From Candidatus Heimdallarchaeota archaeon (lineage in GTDB: Archaea; Asgardarchaeota; Heimdallarchaeia; Hodarchaeales; Hodarchaeaceae): a stretch of 64,000 bases of DNA. The stretch covers positions 32,001 through 96,000 of the forward strand of contig RDOB01000002.1 in NCBI GenBank assembly GCA_011364965.1, read 5' to 3'. Both the position numbers and the translations under genes were made by a program. Of this stretch, positions 3,336 to 14,558 are shown piece by piece. A model generated the notes under the pieces. The model worked only from the letters and a program-made list of their open reading frames with translations, was not told where the DNA came from and searched no databases. Within the stretch, counting starts at the first letter, position 1, and each line of letters begins with the position of its first letter.

Positions 3336-6197
3336 ATGTCTCGTTTCAACACTAAAACTTTGAGTCAGATTATCAAAACATACAGTAACACTAGAGATTT
3401 CTTAGTAAACAAAGAATCAAATATTTCTGATATAAAGATGAAAGTGCAATGTATTGACTTTTTTATGTCAGTAATTTTTTTGATTTGGAGTATGGAAAAA
3501 AACGGAGTTATAAAGAAATTATTTCTTATGTCACAATTAGAAGAATATGATCCAAATCAAAATTTAATGTCTTTTTCCTGTTTTCTTATAGATTCTATTG
3601 AGAAGCTCTTTTTAATAGCAGATTCATCTAATTATTTTACCAAAGAGGAATTTAATATTCTTAAACAAGCAGATCTTCCATTAAGTTGTTTTTATATATC
3701 CAAATCAAAGAAAACAGATGGGATTTTGTCTCAAAATATAGAAATTAATAATATTGAGGCTCTTCCTTTATTTAACCTTTTGGAGTATTTAGATTCATCA
3801 TTTGGAGCGGTCAATGAATATATTTTGGGAAAAATATTCGAATTCTTGTTATCTAAACAAGATCTGAGGAAAAAATTTGGTATCTACTATACGCCTAAGC
3901 AATTTACGGATTATATGTCAAAATTAACGATTGAAAACTATTTTATAGACCAATTAAATATCAAATTTGATATTAAATTAATAAATTTATCTAATTTCTA
4001 TGAGAAATTAGATCTAGATGTGGCAAATTGGGCAATTCATATATTGAAGACATTAAAAATCTTAGATCTGGCGTTAGGAACTGGTCAGTTCCTCATAAGT
4101 GCTATATACCAGCTTTTAGAGATCCATGAGCACGTCAGGAACTTTTACAGAGACAAAGGCTTAATTGAGGTTTTAATACAAGAACTCGAGCTTCAAAATG
4201 ATACCTTCGTTCTTGAAAATTTCCGAAATATCGAAGATGATAACTTTTTTAAGTGTTTAGTGATTAATAAGCTAATAATCCCTCGCAATTTGTATGGAGT
4301 AGACATTAATTTTATAGCTGTACAAATTGCAAAGATTAGATGCTTAATGATAATGGTAAAATTCTTTTCTTCTTCCAAAATGAGAGTTTCACTACTTGCA
4401 AAGATGAATCACAATTTAAAGCAAGGGAATGCATTATTAGGATATCTAGCTTGTCCCAATGATCGTGAAGTATCATATACTTCCTTAAATCAACTGAATT
4501 TAGATTATATAAGCCAATTTGGTATTGAAAGTATTTCGGAAAATGATTTCCCCTTATTTCACTGGTTTTACGAATTTAAGGATGTATTCATTCAAAATAG
4601 TAAATTTCAAGTGATTCTTACCAATCCTCCTTATATAGGAGAGAGTGGGAATAAAAAATTATTTCGTTTACATGCTAAGGCATTATCTGAATACTATGAA
4701 GGGAAAGCAGATCTTTGGTATTATTTCCTGCATAGAAGTATTAATTTATTGTCAGAAAATGGATATTGCACTTTTATTGCTCCTAATTACTGGATTACAG
4801 CGTCGGGAGCATCGTTATTAAGATCTAGGTTAAGTTCTGAGACAACTTTTGTTCGTTATATTAATTTTAATCAAAATTCTGTCTTTAATTCAGCACAGGG
4901 GGTTCATATTAATATTCTAACCGTTAAGAAAGGCATTAACCCTGAACAAAACTTTGAATGCACGGTTTTTAATGATGTTGTAGAAACTAAGGAATTGATT
5001 AAATCTCTCCCTGATCAACAAACATTCATACTTAAGCAGAATGAGTTACTTTTTAATGGATGGGATCCATATTTTCATTTTATCCCTAGAAAATACAGAA
5101 TTATCCTCGAATTTATTATTTCCAAATCTTATAAATTGAAGAATAAAGGATTCTACGTTAAAGAGGGTATTATTACAGGTATGAATACAATTTCGGGAAG
5201 ACAAATATCCCGCTATAATTTATCCCCCGATAAAAAGGGCATTGGAGTGTTTATATTAGATGTAAATCATCCTGAAGATGAAAAGTATATTCAATCTTTG
5301 TCAGAAATAGAAAAATCGATATTGAAACCATTTTATAAAAATTCGGATATAAAAAGATATTATTCAGCATTCAATACTTCAAGAAAGATTCAGTATCTTA
5401 ACAGAAATACCATAAACATAGTCCATTTACCTAGAGTACGTTATTTTCTTGAACAGTTTAAAGAAATCCTCAATGATTCTCTAGATAATCCCCCCTATTT
5501 AAATCGACCCCGAGATCCATTTATGTTTGTATCTCCCAAGATTATTACTCCCCAAAGAAGTAATCTTAATAGATTTGCTTATAATTCTTTAGATTGGTTT
5601 GCTGGACAGGATGTATATTATATTTTAAATGAAAAAAATGATAAAAATGAACTTAAAACTTTACTACTTATTTTAAATTCCAAACTGGCATATTACTGGT
5701 TTTATTGGATGGGAAAAAGAAAAGGGAAACAACTCGAATTATTCAGTGAACCATTGGGATATTTCCCGATTCCTGATTTGAAAGGTAATGATCTCCATAT
5801 ATTGGCTGATTATCTCTTATTTCTCAATTTACTGCATAATGAATCTGAGTCAGCTCGGATTACTAAATTATTAGCTTTTTTTAACAGGTTAGCGGAGCTG
5901 GCTGTTTTCGAGTTCTATTTTTCAGAATTATGTTATAAAAAGGGATTCAGTGAAACAAAGTATCCATTTTCATTCTATATTCAAGAAAATTTAAAAGAAT
6001 TAAATTTTGATGTTATTCTGGAAAATTTCAAAGAGAACTATGATTCAAATAGGAATTTTATTATTCTCTCAGATCAGATTGAAGTGATAGAAGAAGCTTA
6101 CTATAGTTTAAAGACTAATGAAGATATAAAATCCTCCATAAATAAAATTAATACTTTTCCAATGGTAAAAACAATTGCTAAATTTTCGAGCCTCTAA
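3336..6197 (+). CDS. Eco57I/TaqI-like N6-adenine DNA methyltransferase (gamma class) with C-terminal TRD
   Basis: GIYYTP, ILDLALGTGQFL (motif I), LYGVDIN, FHWFYEF, NPPY (motif IV), ADLWYYF, LILNSKL. Confidence 0.85.
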   Translation: MSRFNTKTLSQIIKTYSNTRDFLVNKESNISDIKMKVQCIDFFMSVIFLIWSMEKNGVIKKLFLMSQLEEYDPNQNLMSFSCFLIDSIEKLFLIADSSNYFTKEEFNILKQADLPLSCFYISKSKKTDGILSQNIEINNIEALPLFNLLEYLDSSFGAVNEYILGKIFEFLLSKQDLRKKFGIYYTPKQFTDYMSKLTIENYFIDQLNIKFDIKLINLSNFYEKLDLDVANWAIHILKTLKILDLALGTGQFLISAIYQLLEIHEHVRNFYRDKGLIEVLIQELELQNDTFVLENFRNIEDDNFFKCLVINKLIIPRNLYGVDINFIAVQIAKIRCLMIMVKFFSSSKMRVSLLAKMNHNLKQGNALLGYLACPNDREVSYTSLNQLNLDYISQFGIESISENDFPLFHWFYEFKDVFIQNSKFQVILTNPPYIGESGNKKLFRLHAKALSEYYEGKADLWYYFLHRSINLLSENGYCTFIAPNYWITASGASLLRSRLSSETTFVRYINFNQNSVFNSAQGVHINILTVKKGINPEQNFECTVFNDVVETKELIKSLPDQQTFILKQNELLFNGWDPYFHFIPRKYRIILEFIISKSYKLKNKGFYVKEGIITGMNTISGRQISRYNLSPDKKGIGVFILDVNHPEDEKYIQSLSEIEKSILKPFYKNSDIKRYYSAFNTSRKIQYLNRNTINIVHLPRVRYFLEQFKEILNDSLDNPPYLNRPRDPFMFVSPKIITPQRSNLNRFAYNSLDWFAGQDVYYILNEKNDKNELKTLLLILNSKLAYYWFYWMGKRKGKQLELFSEPLGYFPIPDLKGNDLHILADYLLFLNLLHNESESARITKLLAFFNRLAELAVFEFYFSELCYKKGFSETKYPFSFYIQENLKELNFDVILENFKENYDSNRNFIILSDQIEVIEEAYYSLKTNEDIKSSINKINTFPMVKTIAKFSSL

Positions 6198-6961
6198 ACA
6201 TCTCTCTTTCCTCCTTTAAGCTGTGAAATATGATCAACTACAGATGTCAAAAATTCTCCAGCTTTCGCTTCTATACGGATATCTGCTAGCATATCTAGAT
6301 CCGTTGGGCCGGAATTAACAATAATAAAAAGTGCACCTGATCTTTGTGCAATAACAGGTATTTCTGCTGCAGGAAAAACACTCAAAGTTGACCCGATTGC
6401 AAGAATAACATCACTTCTAATTGCATGGCTTCTCGCAAGTTCCATTTCTCTTTCAGGCATGGGATCATTGAAGTTGACAACTGAAGAAATTATTCTACCT
6501 GAACAGTACGGACATTTTGGTTGATTCCCCTTTATTTTTTCAGTTCGATACCCTTTCCCATGTTCTTGATCATCCCACCCAATCTCTCCCTTTTGAAGTC
6601 GTTCATCACAATCCATACATTTCATAAGTTCAAAATTACCATGCAATTCAGCTAAAAGTTCTTGCGGGATTCCTGACTTTAAATGGAGATTATCAACATT
6701 TTGGGATATGAGATATTTTAGAATACCCATTTTGTAAAGATCCACGATTGCAAAATGAGCTGTATTTGGTTCGATTAGTTCCATAGGTTGTTTTAGAGGT
6801 TTAGGTTTCAGCCCTTTCTCACGTAATGTCCATACACCTTCTGGTCCTCTATAATCTGGCAATCCTGATTCAGTTGATATGCCAGCTCCCGTAAAGATTA
6901 CAAGATAACTAGAAGAGTTTAAAATTTTAGCAATTTTCTGGATTTCTAAATTCAAATTCAT
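6194..6961 (-). CDS. NAD-dependent protein deacylase, Sir2 family (class IV, SIRT6/7-like)
   Basis: GAGISTESGLPDYRG, SQNVDNLH, ELHGN, CxxC...CxxC Zn site, GSTLSVFPAA, IVN. Confidence 0.92.
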   Translation of the reverse strand: MNLNLEIQKIAKILNSSSYLVIFTGAGISTESGLPDYRGPEGVWTLREKGLKPKPLKQPMELIEPNTAHFAIVDLYKMGILKYLISQNVDNLHLKSGIPQELLAELHGNFELMKCMDCDERLQKGEIGWDDQEHGKGYRTEKIKGNQPKCPYCSGRIISSVVNFNDPMPEREMELARSHAIRSDVILAIGSTLSVFPAAEIPVIAQRSGALFIIVNSGPTDLDMLADIRIEAKAGEFLTSVVDHISQLKGGKRDV

Positions 6962-7076
6962 ATAGGAACCGCCTATAATAAAATAAAAGTTAAATAAGAT
7001 AGGAAATGGGTTATATGAGAGAATTATTTAGGAATTTAAGGATATTCTTAATACCTTTGTTACTTAATAGAATTTT

Positions 7077-7373
7077 TTAACGCGTTATAAAACGATCCTT
7101 TATCATTGGGTTGATTATCCAATAGCACCTCCGAGCATCATATAAATCATGTATTTTTATGACAAGATCCTCAGCTTTTAATTTCTTAAGGGCATATCTT
7201 ACAGTTCGGGGAGAATAATTAGAGATATTGGCGATCTGTTTAGACGAGGAAAAGTTATTTGACTCTAATTCTTTTCTGTGAAGAATAGAGTAGATTTCAA
7301 TTGAAGAAGGAGGTAAGCTCATTAATTTCGGAACTATTGTAAGATCAATGCTTTTCATCCTTGGAATCCTCAT
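7077..7373 (-). CDS. Small winged-helix DNA-binding protein
   Basis: LPPSSIEIYSIL...KQIANISNYSPRTVRYALKKLKAEDLVIK...DARRCYW fits an archaeal wHTH. Confidence 0.75.
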   Translation of the reverse strand: MRIPRMKSIDLTIVPKLMSLPPSSIEIYSILHRKELESNNFSSSKQIANISNYSPRTVRYALKKLKAEDLVIKIHDLYDARRCYWIINPMIKDRFITR

Positions 7374-7393
7374 TTTTCCATTTTTATAAAGTG

Positions 7394-7412
7394 ATTCTCA
7401 TTATGTGAGAAT
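7394..7412. promoter_or_regulatory. Palindromic operator candidate ATTCTCA-N5-TGAGAAT between divergent wHTH genes
   Basis: Perfect 7-bp inverted repeat with 5-bp spacer in the 137-bp divergent intergenic region. Confidence 0.5.
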
Positions 7413-7510
7413 GAATCTTATAATATATAAAAGATTATCCATAGAGACGAAAGGTTCGTTTCAGCCGAAAACGATTTATAAGTCAAGAACGCATCTTAAT
7501 GTGAAGATAC

Positions 7511-8484: not shown

Positions 8485-9378
8485 TTAAGAATTAATAAGC
8501 TTTTGAAGTCTTTTTACATAAGTCGAATTTTCAACTTTTTCTTTAAATTCCTGAGCATTTAAAAACCACCATACGTTCCACAATGCTCTATTTTTCCATC
8601 CTAAAGTTCCCCTTAATGTCAATTGCTCATAATTCTCAATAAATGGAGGTGAGTAACATTCAAATAATCTCTGATTCAAACCCTTTCCAAATTTCTTTTT
8701 ATAGAGCGCTTCATGAATATAAACAGATCCTTCGGGTGTATAACAGGAACACATAGCTGCATTTCTCCTCCATCCAATCCAGTCAATGGAATAAAGGTGG
8801 TTAAGAAAAGCAATTTGATGATATGGGCTACCTATTCCAAATCCATGGAAAAAGCAGTCTGAGCTGCTTTTTAAGATTCCCAACCACTCTGCAATTTCAT
8901 ATACACTACCTTTCTGGTTGATTTTTAAAGCCGGGACGACTCCTCCAAGCCCAATATATTTTTCGGATTTATAGTAATTCAAATTATCCGGATAATGTAC
9001 TACAGGCAAAATATTCATAGCAAATTTTCGATTTAATAGCTCCCAATTCCTCTTAGATTTCCTCGGATTACCAATTGAATCAAGATTAACTACTATATCT
9101 TCGGAACCTAGATTAATTCTCTTGAGAAATTGAACGTATTTAGAGATAGAAATTTCAACTCCAGAATTGAAAGCCGAATAAGCACCTGAATCAACAATAA
9201 TCGAACCATCCCAAGAAAAAAATTCCTTTAAACCTGACTGGATAATTTCAGATGTCTTTTTTCTGAAATTCCAGAAAGAAAATATAATTCCGACATCCAA
9301 TTTTTTCATTTTTTCCATGATTTTGACTTCTTCTAACCAAGGATACAGTCCTGGAACAATTCCTAAGTACAACTTCAT
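8485..9378 (-). CDS. TGT/DpdA-like guanine transglycosylase-fold protein A
   Basis: IIVDSGAYS, VNLDSIG, LPVVH, IGLGG, HGFG and SIDW appear in the order of the TGT catalytic barrel; no PUA domain. Confidence 0.7.
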   Translation of the reverse strand: MKLYLGIVPGLYPWLEEVKIMEKMKKLDVGIIFSFWNFRKKTSEIIQSGLKEFFSWDGSIIVDSGAYSAFNSGVEISISKYVQFLKRINLGSEDIVVNLDSIGNPRKSKRNWELLNRKFAMNILPVVHYPDNLNYYKSEKYIGLGGVVPALKINQKGSVYEIAEWLGILKSSSDCFFHGFGIGSPYHQIAFLNHLYSIDWIGWRRNAAMCSCYTPEGSVYIHEALYKKKFGKGLNQRLFECYSPPFIENYEQLTLRGTLGWKNRALWNVWWFLNAQEFKEKVENSTYVKRLQKLINS

Positions 9379-9526
9379 TTTTATTCACAATAGTTGGTTA
9401 AAATTAATTCTAACCTAATTTCTTTGATTTGGATTTTTATTTGCAGGAAAATCCTAAGAATTCAAAAATAATTCAATATATGGTTATTTTATTCTTACTA
9501 AAAAGCTTAAAGAGGTATAATTTTCC

Positions 9527-9985
9527 ATGAATTCAAATAAAGTATTGATTATTCTTTCTTGTGGAAAGAAGAAGTCAGAAAAATTATCTCAAGGAAAACT
9601 AAAGGCCTCTCAAGCGTATATTGGGCCAATGTTTCAGGTAATAAACAAAGCGAAGAGAGAAAGCAGATGGTCTGAGGATTTTTTTTTGGGTATTATATCA
9701 GCAAAATATGGATTTCTGAGAGAGAATCAGGAAATCGAATTTTACGACAAAAAAATGTCAAAAAAAAGAGCTTATGAGTTGAGAGATCAAGTGATTAATT
9801 CAATTCAGACTTGGAATTCAGAGGAGCAGTTTTCATTGATATATATTCTCATGGGGAAGATATATTTGTCCAGTGTGGAAAAATTGAAAGATTTTATAGA
9901 TACCAAAGTAATTATAGAGCCAATGGAAGGTTTAGGAATAGCTCAAAGAAAATTGCTCACCTTTTTGAAAAATCAAAACAAATGA
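9527..9985 (+). CDS. DUF6884-like (YaaA-related) protein
   Basis: ILSCGKKK...ASQAYIGPMF...IISAKYGFL...IEFYDKKMS...GKIY...GLG pattern. Confidence 0.7.
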   Translation: MNSNKVLIILSCGKKKSEKLSQGKLKASQAYIGPMFQVINKAKRESRWSEDFFLGIISAKYGFLRENQEIEFYDKKMSKKRAYELRDQVINSIQTWNSEEQFSLIYILMGKIYLSSVEKLKDFIDTKVIIEPMEGLGIAQRKLLTFLKNQNK

Positions 9986-10024
9986 AGCAATTCAGCAAAA
10001 GAAATTACATTAGAGGATTTCTAG

Positions 10025-11041
10025 ATGATCTTTGCAATAGGCACCCCAGTAAATGCACATTTTCGTCCTTGGACATATGATTGGGCGCTAAAACCTGATG
10101 CTTTGATGATTTCAGCCATTGACTTCTTATCCAGCCCAAGGACGTATAAAAAGTTAAAGAGTAAGGGAATACATGATCTTTTGGCATGGGATGGCTCCAT
10201 TATTTGTGATTCAGGTGCATTTTCTGCTTTAAATCGGAAATCTGCTGTTACCATACAGTTAGAGGATTTATATGCATTATATGAGGAAATTAATAAACAA
10301 GATCCAAATATTCTTAAAATTACTTTAGATTTTCCTGACGATAGAATTATTGAAAATTATAAGAAGCTTTATCCTTTAGAAATAGAGCCTGTTGTACCTT
10401 TCAATAAAATTGAATTGATTGATTCGATATCGAGAATAACGGATGATTTAGATTGGTTATTTATTGGACGTCTTGTTCCATTAATGAGACAAGGTGGTGA
10501 TCACATTTCCAGACTCTCTCTGATATTTGATGTTTTTCGTGAGAAACTTAAAGAGAGAGCATTTACTCACAAAGTGAAACTTTGGGCTCTTGGAGTGGGT
10601 GCTCCAAGCATTCTCCCGTTTATTCGGAGTTTAGTTGAGGGATGTGATTCTTCCCGTTGGAGAGTTACGGGATCAAATATGATACTTTTACCAGCAGGTG
10701 GAGAACGAGGTGTTGGAAATCGTACAAAATGGCGGGGTACTCATCATCGAATTGATGATCAGAATGAACGACATCTGGTGATTAAAATTCTGAAAGATCT
10801 TGATACTCTCTCTGGAGGTTTTGAGAATATTGATCATTCTTTAACATATAATCAGCAACCTAAGCTGATAAAGGGAAGTTTTGAGATAAATTTGCCATCT
10901 ATTGGAGAGCTAATTACAAAAATACGCGAACACTCTGATCTTGTGACAGTTTACGAATTAGAACTCCTGTTAAGAACTTCTGGAAATTTAAGACTCATAT
11001 TTAATTATTGGTCAGCTTTAAATTTTAGTTCAACGGATTAG
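10025..11041 (+). CDS. TGT/DpdA-like guanine transglycosylase-fold protein B
   Basis: LMISA, WDGSIICDSGAFS, ITLDFP, EPVVP, FIGRLVP, WALGVG, GCDSSRW; shares WDGSIIxDSGA with protein A. Confidence 0.7.
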   Translation: MIFAIGTPVNAHFRPWTYDWALKPDALMISAIDFLSSPRTYKKLKSKGIHDLLAWDGSIICDSGAFSALNRKSAVTIQLEDLYALYEEINKQDPNILKITLDFPDDRIIENYKKLYPLEIEPVVPFNKIELIDSISRITDDLDWLFIGRLVPLMRQGGDHISRLSLIFDVFREKLKERAFTHKVKLWALGVGAPSILPFIRSLVEGCDSSRWRVTGSNMILLPAGGERGVGNRTKWRGTHHRIDDQNERHLVIKILKDLDTLSGGFENIDHSLTYNQQPKLIKGSFEINLPSIGELITKIREHSDLVTVYELELLLRTSGNLRLIFNYWSALNFSSTD

Positions 11042-11050
11042 TAATGAGTA

Positions 11051-13423
11051 ATGAACAGTCATAATTTATTAATTTGTCAACCATTGAATTCTGCTTTCGC
11101 GTTTCTTACTGAGATGAAAAAATTTAACTTCAAGTTAATACTTTGGGATTATCGATTCATATTTTTTCCAACTCCAAATCTTATCATAGAATCTCGTATT
11201 GAAGCCAATAATCCTCCAAACTTTAGGTTGATGGAAAATATAGATTTATTTTTATTTGATTTTGAAGAAAATCTCTCTTATTTGAAGCAGAACCTTAAAA
11301 ATTTTGGATTTATCGCTATTTTAATCAATGGTACACTTAAATTTAAAATTAAATCGATTTTGGACAAGGTTCTAGGTATTAGCACATTCCTAAATGAAAT
11401 TCTACTCGATTCACCATATCAGTTATCACATGACTCAAATAGACAAATCTTTGAAAGAACAGATTATATATTACTATATGGGAATCCAAGTAATCAAAGA
11501 GTCAATCCTGTATATAATGACAGGTTAAGTGGAGGATATTGGCATTCTTTTGTTTCAAAAGGTCAAGGATCAGCAAAAATATTTGTAAGAGATGGAAAGA
11601 AGATTGAGATTGCACCTCCACCTGGAACACACTGGAAGTTAAAACAGGAGACAATTCTGAAGTTCTGCCAAGAAGGATTAATCCGTTTCAATTCTAGTGG
11701 AAACCCTGAATACTGGGTAAAAGAGAAAAGAGGACAGATCATCGATACTAATTGGTTAGATATTGACTCTTTTGACACCCAAGGAAATATGATATGCAAT
11801 TCGAAATTTCTATATAAAAGACTCTTCAATCTAGTCTTAAAAGAAGGTGATCAATATTTAAATATCTTCTCGTCTGAAAATACATCTATTATATTAGCAA
11901 ATTCAAATAAAAATCCCTGGGTGAAAATTTACTCATCTGAAGTTCATTTGAAACCTGAAATCAATGAATTAAAAGGAAAAGGATTAACTTTTGAAGTATA
12001 TCAAGATAATCCATTCTCTATCCCTTCTTCAAATCACCACCATAAGATTTCTTCCCCTCCCCATGAAATAAACGCGGATGAAAAGGATATAGAAAATCCT
12101 ACTTTGTCAATCCATGAGTTATATAGCTCTCAGGATCCTGAAACTGTTGATTTATCTAAAGGTAAATGGATTAACAGTCTAATATTAGGAGATTGTTTTA
12201 TTGCTTTAACTTTGATTAAGAAACTTTTTAATGATAGAATTAAGTTGATATATATCGATCCTCCATATTTTACTGGGATTAATGAGATTATCACAATTCC
12301 AATTACACCTGAGAGTCATCACTTAATCGAAAAATTTGCATATCAAAATACAATTAACTCTACAGAACCGATTCAATTTTTTAAAAAATGGTTCAAAGTA
12401 AGATTGGATAAAATGAAAGAGCTCTTAGCGAATGATGGGCATATATTTGTTAGATATGACTATCATTTCGGGCATTATGCCAAATTAGTTCTTGATGAGG
12501 TGTTTGGGGTAGAAAATTTTGTCATTGAGTTATTTGTTAGGAGAATGAAGAAAAACCTCTCAAAGAAACAAGAGTACCATCAAAATCATTTAATTGTTCA
12601 TACTGATTCTCTATTTATCTATCGTAAGTCTAAAGATGCAGTATTAGATTTGAGAAAAATTACTAAAAGACATAAAAATGCTCAAGATATCGCTGAAAGA
12701 GAATTACATAATGATAATCTATGGATTGACATTACTGGATATGAAAAAGTGAAAAAAAGTCTCTATCCAACAGAGAATTCAGAAGTACTACTCAAGAGAC
12801 TTATTGAGATATCAACTGATCCTGGAGATATAATAGCTGACTTTTTTAGTGGATCTGGTACTACATTAGCTGTATCAGAAAAGTTAAAACGAAAATGGAT
12901 AGGTATTGACATTGGCTTGATGTCTATCAACGAAACAAAAAGAAGAATATTGAATCTACCGAATTTTCAGCCATTTGAGATATCAAGAGTAGTAGATAAA
13001 AAGAGGAGTTACAATATTGATTCAAGCGTTCCTGAATTTTTTCTTGGGATAGGAGGCAAAAAAAGGTTAGAAATTGATAAAAATGGGTTAGGGGTAACAA
13101 TAGAACTCCAACGGGATTATTCTGGTATTACTTTATATATAGTTCATTTTTCATCCCAGAAGATAGAGAATTTTCAACCTCTTACCACATTTCGATATTA
13201 TATTGACACTTGGGTACTTGATTGGTCTTATAATGGCTTTCAAATTAGGAGCACTTGGTTCTCGACTAGAAAAACAAAGGGGAAAAGGTTAATAAAACCT
13301 GTTGAAACATTTTGCAGATTTGAAGTTTTTAATAGAACTAAAATAGATTTAGCTTTGCTAATAACCGATATTTTTGGATTGGAATTAAATTATAAGTTTA
13401 AAATTATTTTGTTAAAACACTGA
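11051..13423 (+). CDS. Tandem beta-class (Type III Mod-like) DNA methyltransferase: degenerate N-terminal copy plus intact C-terminal copy
   Basis: C-half has IYIDPPY, LDEVFGVENF, YPTENSEVLLKRLI, DFFSGSGTT and WIGID. N-half has collinear degenerate equivalents plus a PPPGTHWK TRD-like segment. Confidence 0.85.
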   Translation: MNSHNLLICQPLNSAFAFLTEMKKFNFKLILWDYRFIFFPTPNLIIESRIEANNPPNFRLMENIDLFLFDFEENLSYLKQNLKNFGFIAILINGTLKFKIKSILDKVLGISTFLNEILLDSPYQLSHDSNRQIFERTDYILLYGNPSNQRVNPVYNDRLSGGYWHSFVSKGQGSAKIFVRDGKKIEIAPPPGTHWKLKQETILKFCQEGLIRFNSSGNPEYWVKEKRGQIIDTNWLDIDSFDTQGNMICNSKFLYKRLFNLVLKEGDQYLNIFSSENTSIILANSNKNPWVKIYSSEVHLKPEINELKGKGLTFEVYQDNPFSIPSSNHHHKISSPPHEINADEKDIENPTLSIHELYSSQDPETVDLSKGKWINSLILGDCFIALTLIKKLFNDRIKLIYIDPPYFTGINEIITIPITPESHHLIEKFAYQNTINSTEPIQFFKKWFKVRLDKMKELLANDGHIFVRYDYHFGHYAKLVLDEVFGVENFVIELFVRRMKKNLSKKQEYHQNHLIVHTDSLFIYRKSKDAVLDLRKITKRHKNAQDIAERELHNDNLWIDITGYEKVKKSLYPTENSEVLLKRLIEISTDPGDIIADFFSGSGTTLAVSEKLKRKWIGIDIGLMSINETKRRILNLPNFQPFEISRVVDKKRSYNIDSSVPEFFLGIGGKKRLEIDKNGLGVTIELQRDYSGITLYIVHFSSQKIENFQPLTTFRYYIDTWVLDWSYNGFQIRSTWFSTRKTKGKRLIKPVETFCRFEVFNRTKIDLALLITDIFGLELNYKFKIILLKH

Positions 13424-13427
13424 TGTA

Positions 13428-13913
13428 ATGATATTTCAGGGAAGTAGAAATAGAAAGTTGTTTAATGGATTTCATACAAAGGTGAGCGATATGACAGTTT
13501 ATCAATCTAAAATTCAATTAAAAGAGACTTTTGAGACAGAAATTGTGAATATTACAACTAACATACAACAAGAAGTTGATAAATCCGGCATCAAGAATGG
13601 CATAGCCACAATTTTTAATGTAGGATCGACTGGAGGTATTTTAACTTTGGAATATGAACCAGGATTGTTAAAAGATATTCCTGCATATTTAGAACGTACG
13701 ATTCCGAAAAGTAGCATAAAATATGAACATGAGAAAACTTGGCATGATGACAATGGTCATTCTCATGTACGAGCATCAATTATCGGTCCCTCTTTAACTG
13801 TACCAATAACACAGGGAAAATTGATTCATGGAACATGGCAACAAGTAGCATTTATGGAATTAGATACCCGTCCTCGTCGAAGAGGGTTACATATTACTAT
13901 TATTGGAGAATGA
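13428..13913 (+). CDS. yjbQ: YjbQ/UPF0047 family protein (true start probably ATG at 13491)
   Basis: GSTGGI...EYEPGL.KD...YEHE...NGHSHVRASIIGPS...GTWQQV.F.ELD.RPR. Confidence 0.9.
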   Translation: MIFQGSRNRKLFNGFHTKVSDMTVYQSKIQLKETFETEIVNITTNIQQEVDKSGIKNGIATIFNVGSTGGILTLEYEPGLLKDIPAYLERTIPKSSIKYEHEKTWHDDNGHSHVRASIIGPSLTVPITQGKLIHGTWQQVAFMELDTRPRRRGLHITIIGE

Positions 13914-14108: not shown

Positions 14109-14558
14109 TTGACAAGTGCATTCGAGGAAGCATATAGTTATCTAAATAGCTCAATTCGTACCTATGTTAATGCAACCTCTACTATAGATAAATTATTTGC
14201 AATTAAACTTATAGTTCTTTGTATGATAGTTGCAACTGACGCTCTTATGGAAAGCGTCGAAAAAACTACAGACACCCCATTTCATGGACATCTCGAAGAA
14301 TCCAGCTTTTTCCTCCCTATTGCAGCATACGAACAAAGGATGGCTGATCTGAGTCATCTTGAGGATACTGGTATTATTCCTGAGAAATATCAATTTTCAC
14401 GACGCTTGAGAAGAGCTTTAGACTTGTTGAAAGTTGCGTATGGAAATTATGGTCTTCGTTCCTTATTAGCAATAAACATTAAGGAGTTTATTAATGATTC
14501 ACAGTTTTTTGTACTTGATATCGAGATTCTTGTAGAGTCTCTAACTCAGGACAATTAA
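14109..14558 (+). CDS. Helical hypothetical protein, possibly HEPN/PaREP1-like
   Basis: 149-aa all-alpha pattern; GGAG SD-like sequence before TTG; no clear RxxxxH motif. Confidence 0.45.
   Translation: MTSAFEEAYSYLNSSIRTYVNATSTIDKLFAIKLIVLCMIVATDALMESVEKTTDTPFHGHLEESSFFLPIAAYEQRMADLSHLEDTGIIPEKYQFSRRLRRALDLLKVAYGNYGLRSLLAINIKEFINDSQFFVLDIEILVESLTQDN

Follow-up and report, generated by a model that had tools for sequence, protein, structure and literature searches.

A conserved locus of Hodarchaeales encodes two DpdA-like transglycosylase paralogues and may specify a variant 7-deazaguanine modification of DNA

In phages and in bacteria with mobile Dpd islands, 7-deazaguanine bases are known to occur in DNA and to serve attack or defence. 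The Hodarchaeales are among the closest archaeal relatives of the eukaryotes. In this work a 64,000-nt stretch of the genome of Candidatus Heimdallarchaeota archaeon (GCA_011364965.1, contig RDOB01000002.1, positions 32,001-96,000; hereafter the window) was analyzed, which according to the GTDB taxonomy belongs to the family Hodarchaeaceae (order Hodarchaeales, class Heimdallarchaeia, Asgardarchaeota). It contains a divergent cluster of five genes encoding two proteins related to tRNA-guanine transglycosylases (TGT-like A and TGT-like B, in the following A and B), a DUF6884 protein, a DNA methyltransferase and a YjbQ protein. With roughly even confidence, we interpret this cluster as a DpdB-less, nuclease-less, chromosomally fixed module of the DpdA type, predicted to modify DNA with a 7-deazaguanine, with DUF6884 as the finishing enzyme and with linked adenine methylation. 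No description of such a module was found in full-text literature searches.

In the bacterial Dpd system of Salmonella Montevideo (DpdA/DpdB/DpdC; structure 7ui4, PMC10164549) a TGT-fold enzyme is accompanied by a partner of the YaaA superfamily, which acts on the inserted base in DNA. This partner, DpdC, is a DUF328/YaaA protein (PMC12839542), and it converts preQ0-DNA to ADG-DNA. Gedara et al. reported that three aspartates (general acid/base, base-binding and nucleophile) are invariant in TGT and DpdA enzymes (PMC10164549). The archaeal cluster shares with Dpd the TGT-fold enzyme carrying the same three aspartates as well as the YaaA-superfamily partner. In contrast to Dpd, it has two paralogous transglycosylases, DUF6884 instead of DUF328 and a methyltransferase in the operon, and whereas Dpd resides on a mobile island, the archaeal module is vertically inherited. 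The initial annotation of the window had proposed a new system; taking these likenesses and differences together, the cluster is better regarded as a variant of the DpdA kind than as a wholly new system.

Searching the Protein Data Bank with the sequences of A and B gave TGT matches that were marginal, so that a fold search was needed. Modelling and motif analysis were based on one alignment per family (44 sequences for A, 43 for B), and the AlphaFold2 models had pLDDT values of 94.2 (A) and 90.7 (B). In an exhaustive structural comparison, in which unrelated TIM barrels score Z 13 or less, the best match of both models was the catalytic barrel of archaeosine TGT (arcTGT, 1iq8), with Z 24.9 for A (rmsd 2.6, 272 residues aligned) and Z 19.9 for B (rmsd 3.1, 261 residues aligned). 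Further matches were (Z for A and B, respectively) the DNA preQ0 insertase DpdA 7ui4 (21.1 and 18.0), bacterial TGT (19.8 and 17.3), QTRT2 (18.2 and 15.3) and Cap10 (9ntn_B; 17.3 and 14.8). On these models both proteins can be assigned with confidence to the TGT-type (beta/alpha)8 barrel, which agrees with the fold named in the initial annotation. A and B are paralogues of each other (BLASTP 2e-8; hhalign of the family profiles 2e-13). Prediction of an A-B complex returned a score of 0.00, which counts neither for nor against a heterodimer.

The three catalytic aspartates are D63 (in DSG), D100 (L99-D100) and D199 (SIDW) in A, and D62 (DSG), D102 (L101-D102) and D208 (GCDS) in B. They are invariant across all aligned sequences of the respective family, and they align with the aspartates of arcTGT and of DpdA-like proteins. 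Outside the catalytic barrel A and B differ from arcTGT: neither contains a PUA or TGT_C2 domain in a Pfam scan, and the CxCxxC...H zinc site is missing, A having only a CSC at residues 210-212, which does not align with the arcTGT CxCxxC, and B having no Cys cluster. The initial annotation was thus right on the retention of the DSG motif, the LD aspartate and the nucleophile-position aspartate in both proteins, which extends to the orthologues, and on their lack of the PUA domain and of a complete zinc site. With the arcTGT model TIGR00432 (cut-off 350 bits) A scored 26.8 bits (1.7e-6) and B 20.7 bits, and neither protein had a Pfam match to DpdA4/DUF6610.

In profile comparison A matched the viral DpdA family phrog_887 (5e-26 over residues 17-283), for which the value of B was 0.006. 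A search with the A-family profile at E <= 1e-5 added 787 proteins. Of these distant relatives 52 were examined; all of them belong to phrog_887, and 22 also match the PADLOC DpdA model. By tblastn, A matched 128 phage records of groups with DpdA-type genes annotated as queuine tRNA-ribosyltransferase, namely viruses of Mycobacterium, Pseudomonas, Rhizobium, Vibrio, Cellulophaga and Sulfolobus. A maximum-likelihood tree of 59 sequences (SH-aLRT supports, rooted on arcTGT) separated the true arcTGT proteins from all short forms (support 100), placed A within the viral DpdA clade (98), and joined B with a B-like protein, P0196 (98), in a group sister to the viral DpdA clade (89). A and B therefore do not group with the tRNA-acting enzymes arcTGT and ArcS; the initial annotation had named such a grouping as contrary to its proposal. 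The viral enzymes (DpdA1/DpdA2-type; Hutinet 2019, Cui 2023) are likewise short and devoid of PUA and, in the aligned sequences, of the arcTGT CxCxxC; some of the phages also have DUF6884, and one has tandem DpdA paralogues. In contrast to them, the archaeal module is cellular, chromosomal and part of the core of its lineage, and its A protein is paired with B and a methyltransferase.

With 113 matches at E <= 0.001 in a search of 1.84 billion representatives, the B family is tiny. Closest to it are short TGT-like proteins of archaea (hhalign 5.8e-46), which have the same barrel and catalytic aspartates. All of these score far below the arcTGT cut-off, and about 60% also match DpdA models. They differ from B in that their loci contain nuclease and ATPase partners typical of defence, whereas B has no nuclease partner; moreover, they have a CxCPxC consensus and, except P0196, a normal base pocket, both of which B has lost. 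One such locus (L019:6042-11652, archaeal-type) has the gene order YhhQ (Vut_1), short TGT-like, DUF5591-only (ArcS-core), NurA, HerA and KAP NTPase, and looks like a DNA-archaeosine modification module combined with a NurA/HerA effector. Another (L017:883-7640) encodes a BrxC/D-like ATPase, a 357-aa TGT, a 289-aa unknown protein, P0196, a nuclease of the PLD family and a second ATPase; thus P0196, the nearest outgroup of B, which has the Arg/Trp pocket of B (see below), sits in a defence-like locus.

The DUF6884 protein of the cluster matched PF21818 with 51.5 bits (cut-off 30; 1.5e-13) and the candidate-defence model PDC-M57A of PADLOC with 1e-13. Its match to PF03883 (DUF328/YaaA) was below the cut-off (16.9 versus 29.6 bits), and that to the PADLOC DpdC model was weak (E 0.0034 over 70 residues), so the kinship of DUF6884 with DpdC is at the superfamily level only (PMC11701544). 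The protein contains the motifs C12...K16 (CxxxK) and ISAKYG ((I/L)SAxYG), which are conserved in its relatives and in two phage homologues. DUF6884 was described by the Pfam authors as a distant relative of YaaA with CxxxK and LSAxxG motifs; they modelled it as flipping a nucleotide into the active site, and modelled a member on a DNA-RNA hybrid (PMC11701544).

The two phage homologues of DUF6884 come from independent clusters, and these are the strongest functional links of the module. A phage-like metagenomic contig carries, in this order, genes for DnaB, DUF6884, a YhhQ-type transporter, QueC, two tandem DpdA paralogues that are 46% identical, and PolA; it is a viral counterpart of the arrangement of two transglycosylases with DUF6884. 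The cluster of this contig (L014:675-4326) lies just upstream of the genes for PolA and a sliding clamp. In Acinetobacter phage HD01 (PQ437329.1, L016:6986-11014) the order is DUF6884, QueE, QueC, QueD, FolE and DpdA. The first of these, HD01_00030, is annotated as 'hypothetical protein'; it is homologous to DUF6884 and contains both motifs, CxxxK and SAxYG. Because it heads a deazaguanine cluster, DUF6884 may be an unrecognized component of phage deazaguanine pathways. Taken together, relatives of A, B and DUF6884 in phages and other archaea adjoin QueC, QueE, YhhQ and ArcS-core genes, which suggests a tie of the module to 7-deazaguanines. By this company DUF6884 would be a DpdC-like finishing or processing enzyme, and by analogy with QueF-type enzymes an attack of its cysteine on the nitrile is a plausible chemistry.

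Conservation was studied in 83 genomes of the class, 21 of which belong to the family of the window and two to its sister family. Orthologues of B were found in 20 of the 21 family genomes and in both genomes of the sister family; elsewhere in the class there are distant TGT-like proteins alone. The latter, 375-411 aa long, occur in other Heimdallarchaeia families (G005:C13:41761-43941, G007:C1:2747130-2747885 and G006:C1:2521589-2522419), and at the first of these sites two such genes stand in tandem. A is present in 17/21 and 1/2 genomes, respectively, DUF6884 in 20/21 family genomes (in 21 genomes of the order its gene immediately precedes B), and an orthologue of the 790-aa methyltransferase follows B in 19/21. 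In 16 of 18 genomes A and B are divergent and 0.56-1.6 kb apart, and in the other two the distance is 12.3 kb. In three relatives the cluster is flanked by YjbQ, TFIIB and transporters. A closed 4.9-Mb genome (locus L001) and two other assemblies share with the window the continuation of the gene order to YjbQ, a small unknown ORF and TFIIB. Variable genes (DUF362, a 533-aa unknown protein, MFS or EamA transporters) are inserted in some relatives. About 7 of the 18 genomes with A and B may carry an insert like the DUF362 gene of L001, judging from a widening of the A-B spacing from about 0.6 kb to about 1.5-1.6 kb. The linkage described in the initial annotation is thus conserved across the Hodarchaeales, next to TFIIB, and the module is a vertically inherited chromosomal locus, not a mobile defence island. 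An interpretation as a provirus or mobile element was rejected on account of the synteny with YjbQ and TFIIB and of the near-universal presence of the genes.

The module has no linked FolE or QueCDE genes, so its substrate would have to be salvaged. QueC was found neither in the 21 family genomes nor in the window's own genome, whereas in the remaining families of the class 56 of 59 genomes have it; an apparent QueC in the window's genome proved to be a ThiI-like PP-loop protein. QueE is also missing from the family and from the window's genome, being confined to the sister family, one genome of which has QueC too. The initial annotation had seen neither dpdB/dpdC nor que genes in the window: the part on the que genes was borne out, QueC and QueE being missing even genome-wide, and the part on dpdC was not, as DUF6884 is a DpdC-superfamily protein. 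ArcS was present in 24/24 genomes, and the window's genome has its own arcTGT (499 bits) away from the cluster. A Vut_1 protein occurs in 19/21 family genomes and in neither genome of the sister family; its copy in the window's genome exceeded the cut-off of the queuosine-precursor transporter model TIGR00697 (91.5 versus 50.95 bits). The transporter gene (G000:C9:416806-417594; L035:1806-2594, minus strand) adjoins a gene for a DUF1156 anti-phage-associated methyltransferase-like protein. Since QueC and QueE are missing while transporter, arcTGT and ArcS have been kept, the family probably salvages preQ0 or another 7-deazaguanine precursor. Archaeosine synthesis in the family must depend on such a salvaged precursor, which would also be available to A and B.

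The methyltransferase consists of two unequal halves. Its C-terminal half matched PF01555 (N6_N4_Mtase) at residues 397-623 with 142.5 bits (2.5e-41) and has the motif order IDPPYF followed by FFSGSGTT. This half is repeated in degenerate form at the N-terminus (PF01555 E 0.0015, internal BLASTP 7e-6), where IFSSENTS replaces FFSGSGTT; this duplication accounts for the 'tandem methyltransferase' of the initial annotation. The closest solved chains were the type III Mod protein 6k0w (2.5e-17) and CcrM (2.2e-11). By score and motifs the enzyme is a pseudo-dimeric beta-class N6/N4 methyltransferase, with a presumably dead N-terminal and active C-terminal half. No Res helicase-nuclease, the type III partner, flanks the gene in the window or in the three relative loci L001, L009 and L010. 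A DpdM-like role, in which the enzyme would methylate the inserted base, was discarded, as DpdM is a DUF3109 protein of unrelated fold. In the closed genome another, 446-aa N6_N4 methyltransferase is encoded tail-to-tail with A, and a DUF362 gene lies between A and DUF6884 (L001:4068-5408 / 6568-7470).

The features of the window are collected in Table 1. The ORFs of the divergent cluster were found where the initial annotation had placed them, with gaps of 39 and 9 bp between the first three plus-strand genes and of 4 bp before YjbQ. The YjbQ protein matched PF01894 (6e-33) and TIGR00149 (1e-30), and its gene has the same position in the three relative loci. The small ORF between YjbQ and TFIIB is also present in L001 and L009. 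Upstream of the cluster the type IIG candidate converges on a SIR2/CobB-like gene with a 4-bp overlap. An interpretation as a defence island had rested on these two upstream genes and was rejected, since they are not conserved next to the cluster in relatives.

Table 1. Positions of the cluster genes and of neighbouring features in the window
Feature	Position	Strand	Remarks
TGT-like A, DpdA-type transglycosylase paralogue	8485..9378	-	297 aa
Divergent spacer between A and DUF6884, 148 bp	9379..9526	.	from gene coordinates; promoters presumed, function putative
DUF6884 protein, YaaA/DpdC superfamily	9527..9985	+	152 aa; PF21818
TGT-like B, divergent DpdA-like paralogue with changed base pocket	10025..11041	+	338 aa
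Pseudo-dimeric beta-class DNA methyltransferase, Mod/CcrM-like (predicted)	11051..13423	+	790 aa; PF01555
YjbQ/UPF0047, conserved neighbour, membership in the module uncertain	13428..13913	+	PF01894, TIGR00149
Small ORF	14109..14558	+	149 aa; no family match
Eco57I/MmeI-type (type IIG, PglX-like) methyltransferase-endonuclease candidate	3336..6197	+	953 aa
SIR2/CobB-like gene	6194..6961	-	

These data can be combined into the following scheme. A and B, as zinc-site-reduced TGT barrels, would most likely excise guanine from DNA, with one Asp as nucleophile and another as general acid/base, and replace it by a 7-deazaguanine, most likely preQ0. The preQ0 would be imported by the YhhQ-type queuosine-precursor transporter in this lineage devoid of QueC and QueE. 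DUF6884, with its conserved Cys...Lys, would bind the flipped or modified nucleotide and finish or process the inserted base on DNA, and the presumably co-transcribed Mod/CcrM-like enzyme would add N6-methyladenine. The absence of a linked nuclease and the near-universal, syntenic occurrence of the genes suggest that the mark is probably constitutive, serving to protect the genome or as an epigenetic signal, and does not form half of a mobile restriction system.

Several observations weigh against this interpretation. Bacterial DpdA requires the DpdB ATPase, even if some phage DpdA enzymes work alone, and the PADLOC scan of the cluster proteins found neither a DpdB-like ATPase nor any of DpdD-K, a genome-wide search for DpdB not having been made. 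A and B are below the curated DpdA models, neither of them matching the PADLOC or NCBIfam DpdA model at E <= 0.1, and with Pfam TGT (PF01702, gathering 26.3 bits) A reached 16.8 bits and B had no match. The tree was built without bacterial TGT or bacterial DpdA anchors, its root being placed on arcTGT. The locus itself has no que, transporter or ArcS-core gene; the transporter is encoded on the same contig, but about 320 kb from the cluster. The linkage of the methyltransferase may be plain synteny, given that in some genomes variable genes separate it from B. In B the DpdA histidine is missing and the pocket contains Arg and Trp, so its base may be other than preQ0. Finally, near-universal vertical inheritance is equally typical of housekeeping RNA-modification genes.

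The last point leads to the possibility that one or both of A and B act as lineage-specific guanine transglycosylases on tRNA or rRNA, adding salvaged preQ0 at an extra RNA position, with DUF6884 finishing the base on RNA and the methyltransferase being a mere neighbour. The genes are indeed housekeeping-like in being single-copy and syntenic with TFIIB, both proteins are structurally most similar to arcTGT, the distant relatives of B score best with TIGR00432, and a DUF6884 member has been modelled on a DNA-RNA hybrid. However, a canonical arcTGT and ArcS are already encoded in the genome, and A and B, devoid of the zinc subdomain and of the PUA/C2 domains that bind tRNA, fall outside the arcTGT clade and with viral DpdA in the tree. 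Taking into account also that their operon partner is a methyltransferase of a DNA type and that relatives of DUF6884 and A occur in phage DNA-modification clusters, we consider action on RNA unlikely.

A different question is which base the two enzymes would handle. Their base pockets were compared in a sequence and motif alignment that contained no bacterial DpdA. A keeps the PVVH histidine, the GLGGVVP loop (with the arcTGT-like GGVVP) and FHGFG, as do viral DpdA-like proteins and arcTGT. His128 of A is invariant and occupies the PxxH position common to viral DpdA-like proteins; by position, it would correspond to the base-reading His181 of DpdA. A also keeps Y67 and F180, candidate residues of the hydrophobic sandwich. 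In B, the base-reading positions of TGT and DpdA are changed to PVVP (His to Pro), FIGRLVP (Gly to Arg149) and WALGVG (His to Trp187), and these substitutions are invariant in the B family and also found in P0196. In view of these invariant changes, B is probably active but may read a different base or a different state of the substrate.

Accordingly, B or both proteins might exchange a base other than the known 7-deazaguanines, or B might re-exchange sites modified by A, the product being an undescribed DNA base. The intact Asp triad of B next to three family-invariant pocket substitutions and the small size of its family agree with this, as does the fact that among viral homologues B is closest in sequence to the DpdA of STSV, the DNA of STSV-2 carrying the unusual dCDG. 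On the other hand, the pocket of B has been read from a sequence alignment alone, and preQ0 is indicated by the relatives just outside B, which have a normal pocket and are encoded beside YhhQ and an ArcS core. For these reasons an exchange of other bases appears doubtful. The most far-reaching version, in which Hodarchaeales constitutively mark their own chromosome by a nuclease-free module of an epigenetic type, A inserting salvaged preQ0, B inserting or further exchanging a different, undescribed base and DUF6884 finishing the mark, is likewise improbable in our estimation.

The exchange catalyzed by TGT enzymes is reversible for preQ0 and preQ1. From this established enzymology, A, B and DUF6884 could be imagined to work in the opposite direction and free 7-deazaguanines from foreign or turned-over nucleic acids, swapping in guanine and feeding arcTGT and ArcS. 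The persistence of these two enzymes in a family whose 21 genomes, as well as the window's own, are devoid of QueC and QueE would fit such a role, as would the fact that some relatives have genes for EamA or MFS transporters within the cluster or next to it. However, the sister family has B (2/2; A 1/2) together with QueE and, in one genome, QueC, showing that the module is older than the loss of synthesis. In addition, a dedicated transporter already provides the base, the characterized relatives insert bases and do not release them, and the linkage to the methyltransferase is left unexplained, so that a function in salvage seems very doubtful.

Cap10 conjugates deazaguanine to protein in type IV CBASS. 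That the TGT-like proteins attack modified viral DNA as glycosylases, or conjugate deazaguanine to protein like Cap10, is highly improbable: Cap10 is among the structural matches, DUF6884 matches PDC-M57A and type IIG and SIR2 genes lie upstream in the window, but there is no CD-NTase or QueC partner, the two upstream genes are not conserved in relatives, and the near-universal vertical inheritance is unlike that of patchy defence genes.

The interpretation favoured here is thus a DpdA-type module predicted to act on DNA. In it, an enzyme kind known from phages and mobile islands has become fixed in the chromosomes of an entire Asgard lineage and is inherited vertically; the module is distinguished by two diverged paralogues, by the DUF6884 and methyltransferase partners, by the absence of a nuclease and by the salvaged precursor. 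If this interpretation is true, DUF6884 gains a function as a DpdC-like finishing enzyme, a role supported by the phage clusters, too. The DNA of the Hodarchaeales themselves may carry an undescribed mark, and if it is truly modified, a cellular archaeon near the eukaryotic stem would have a non-canonical base as a constitutive part of its DNA.

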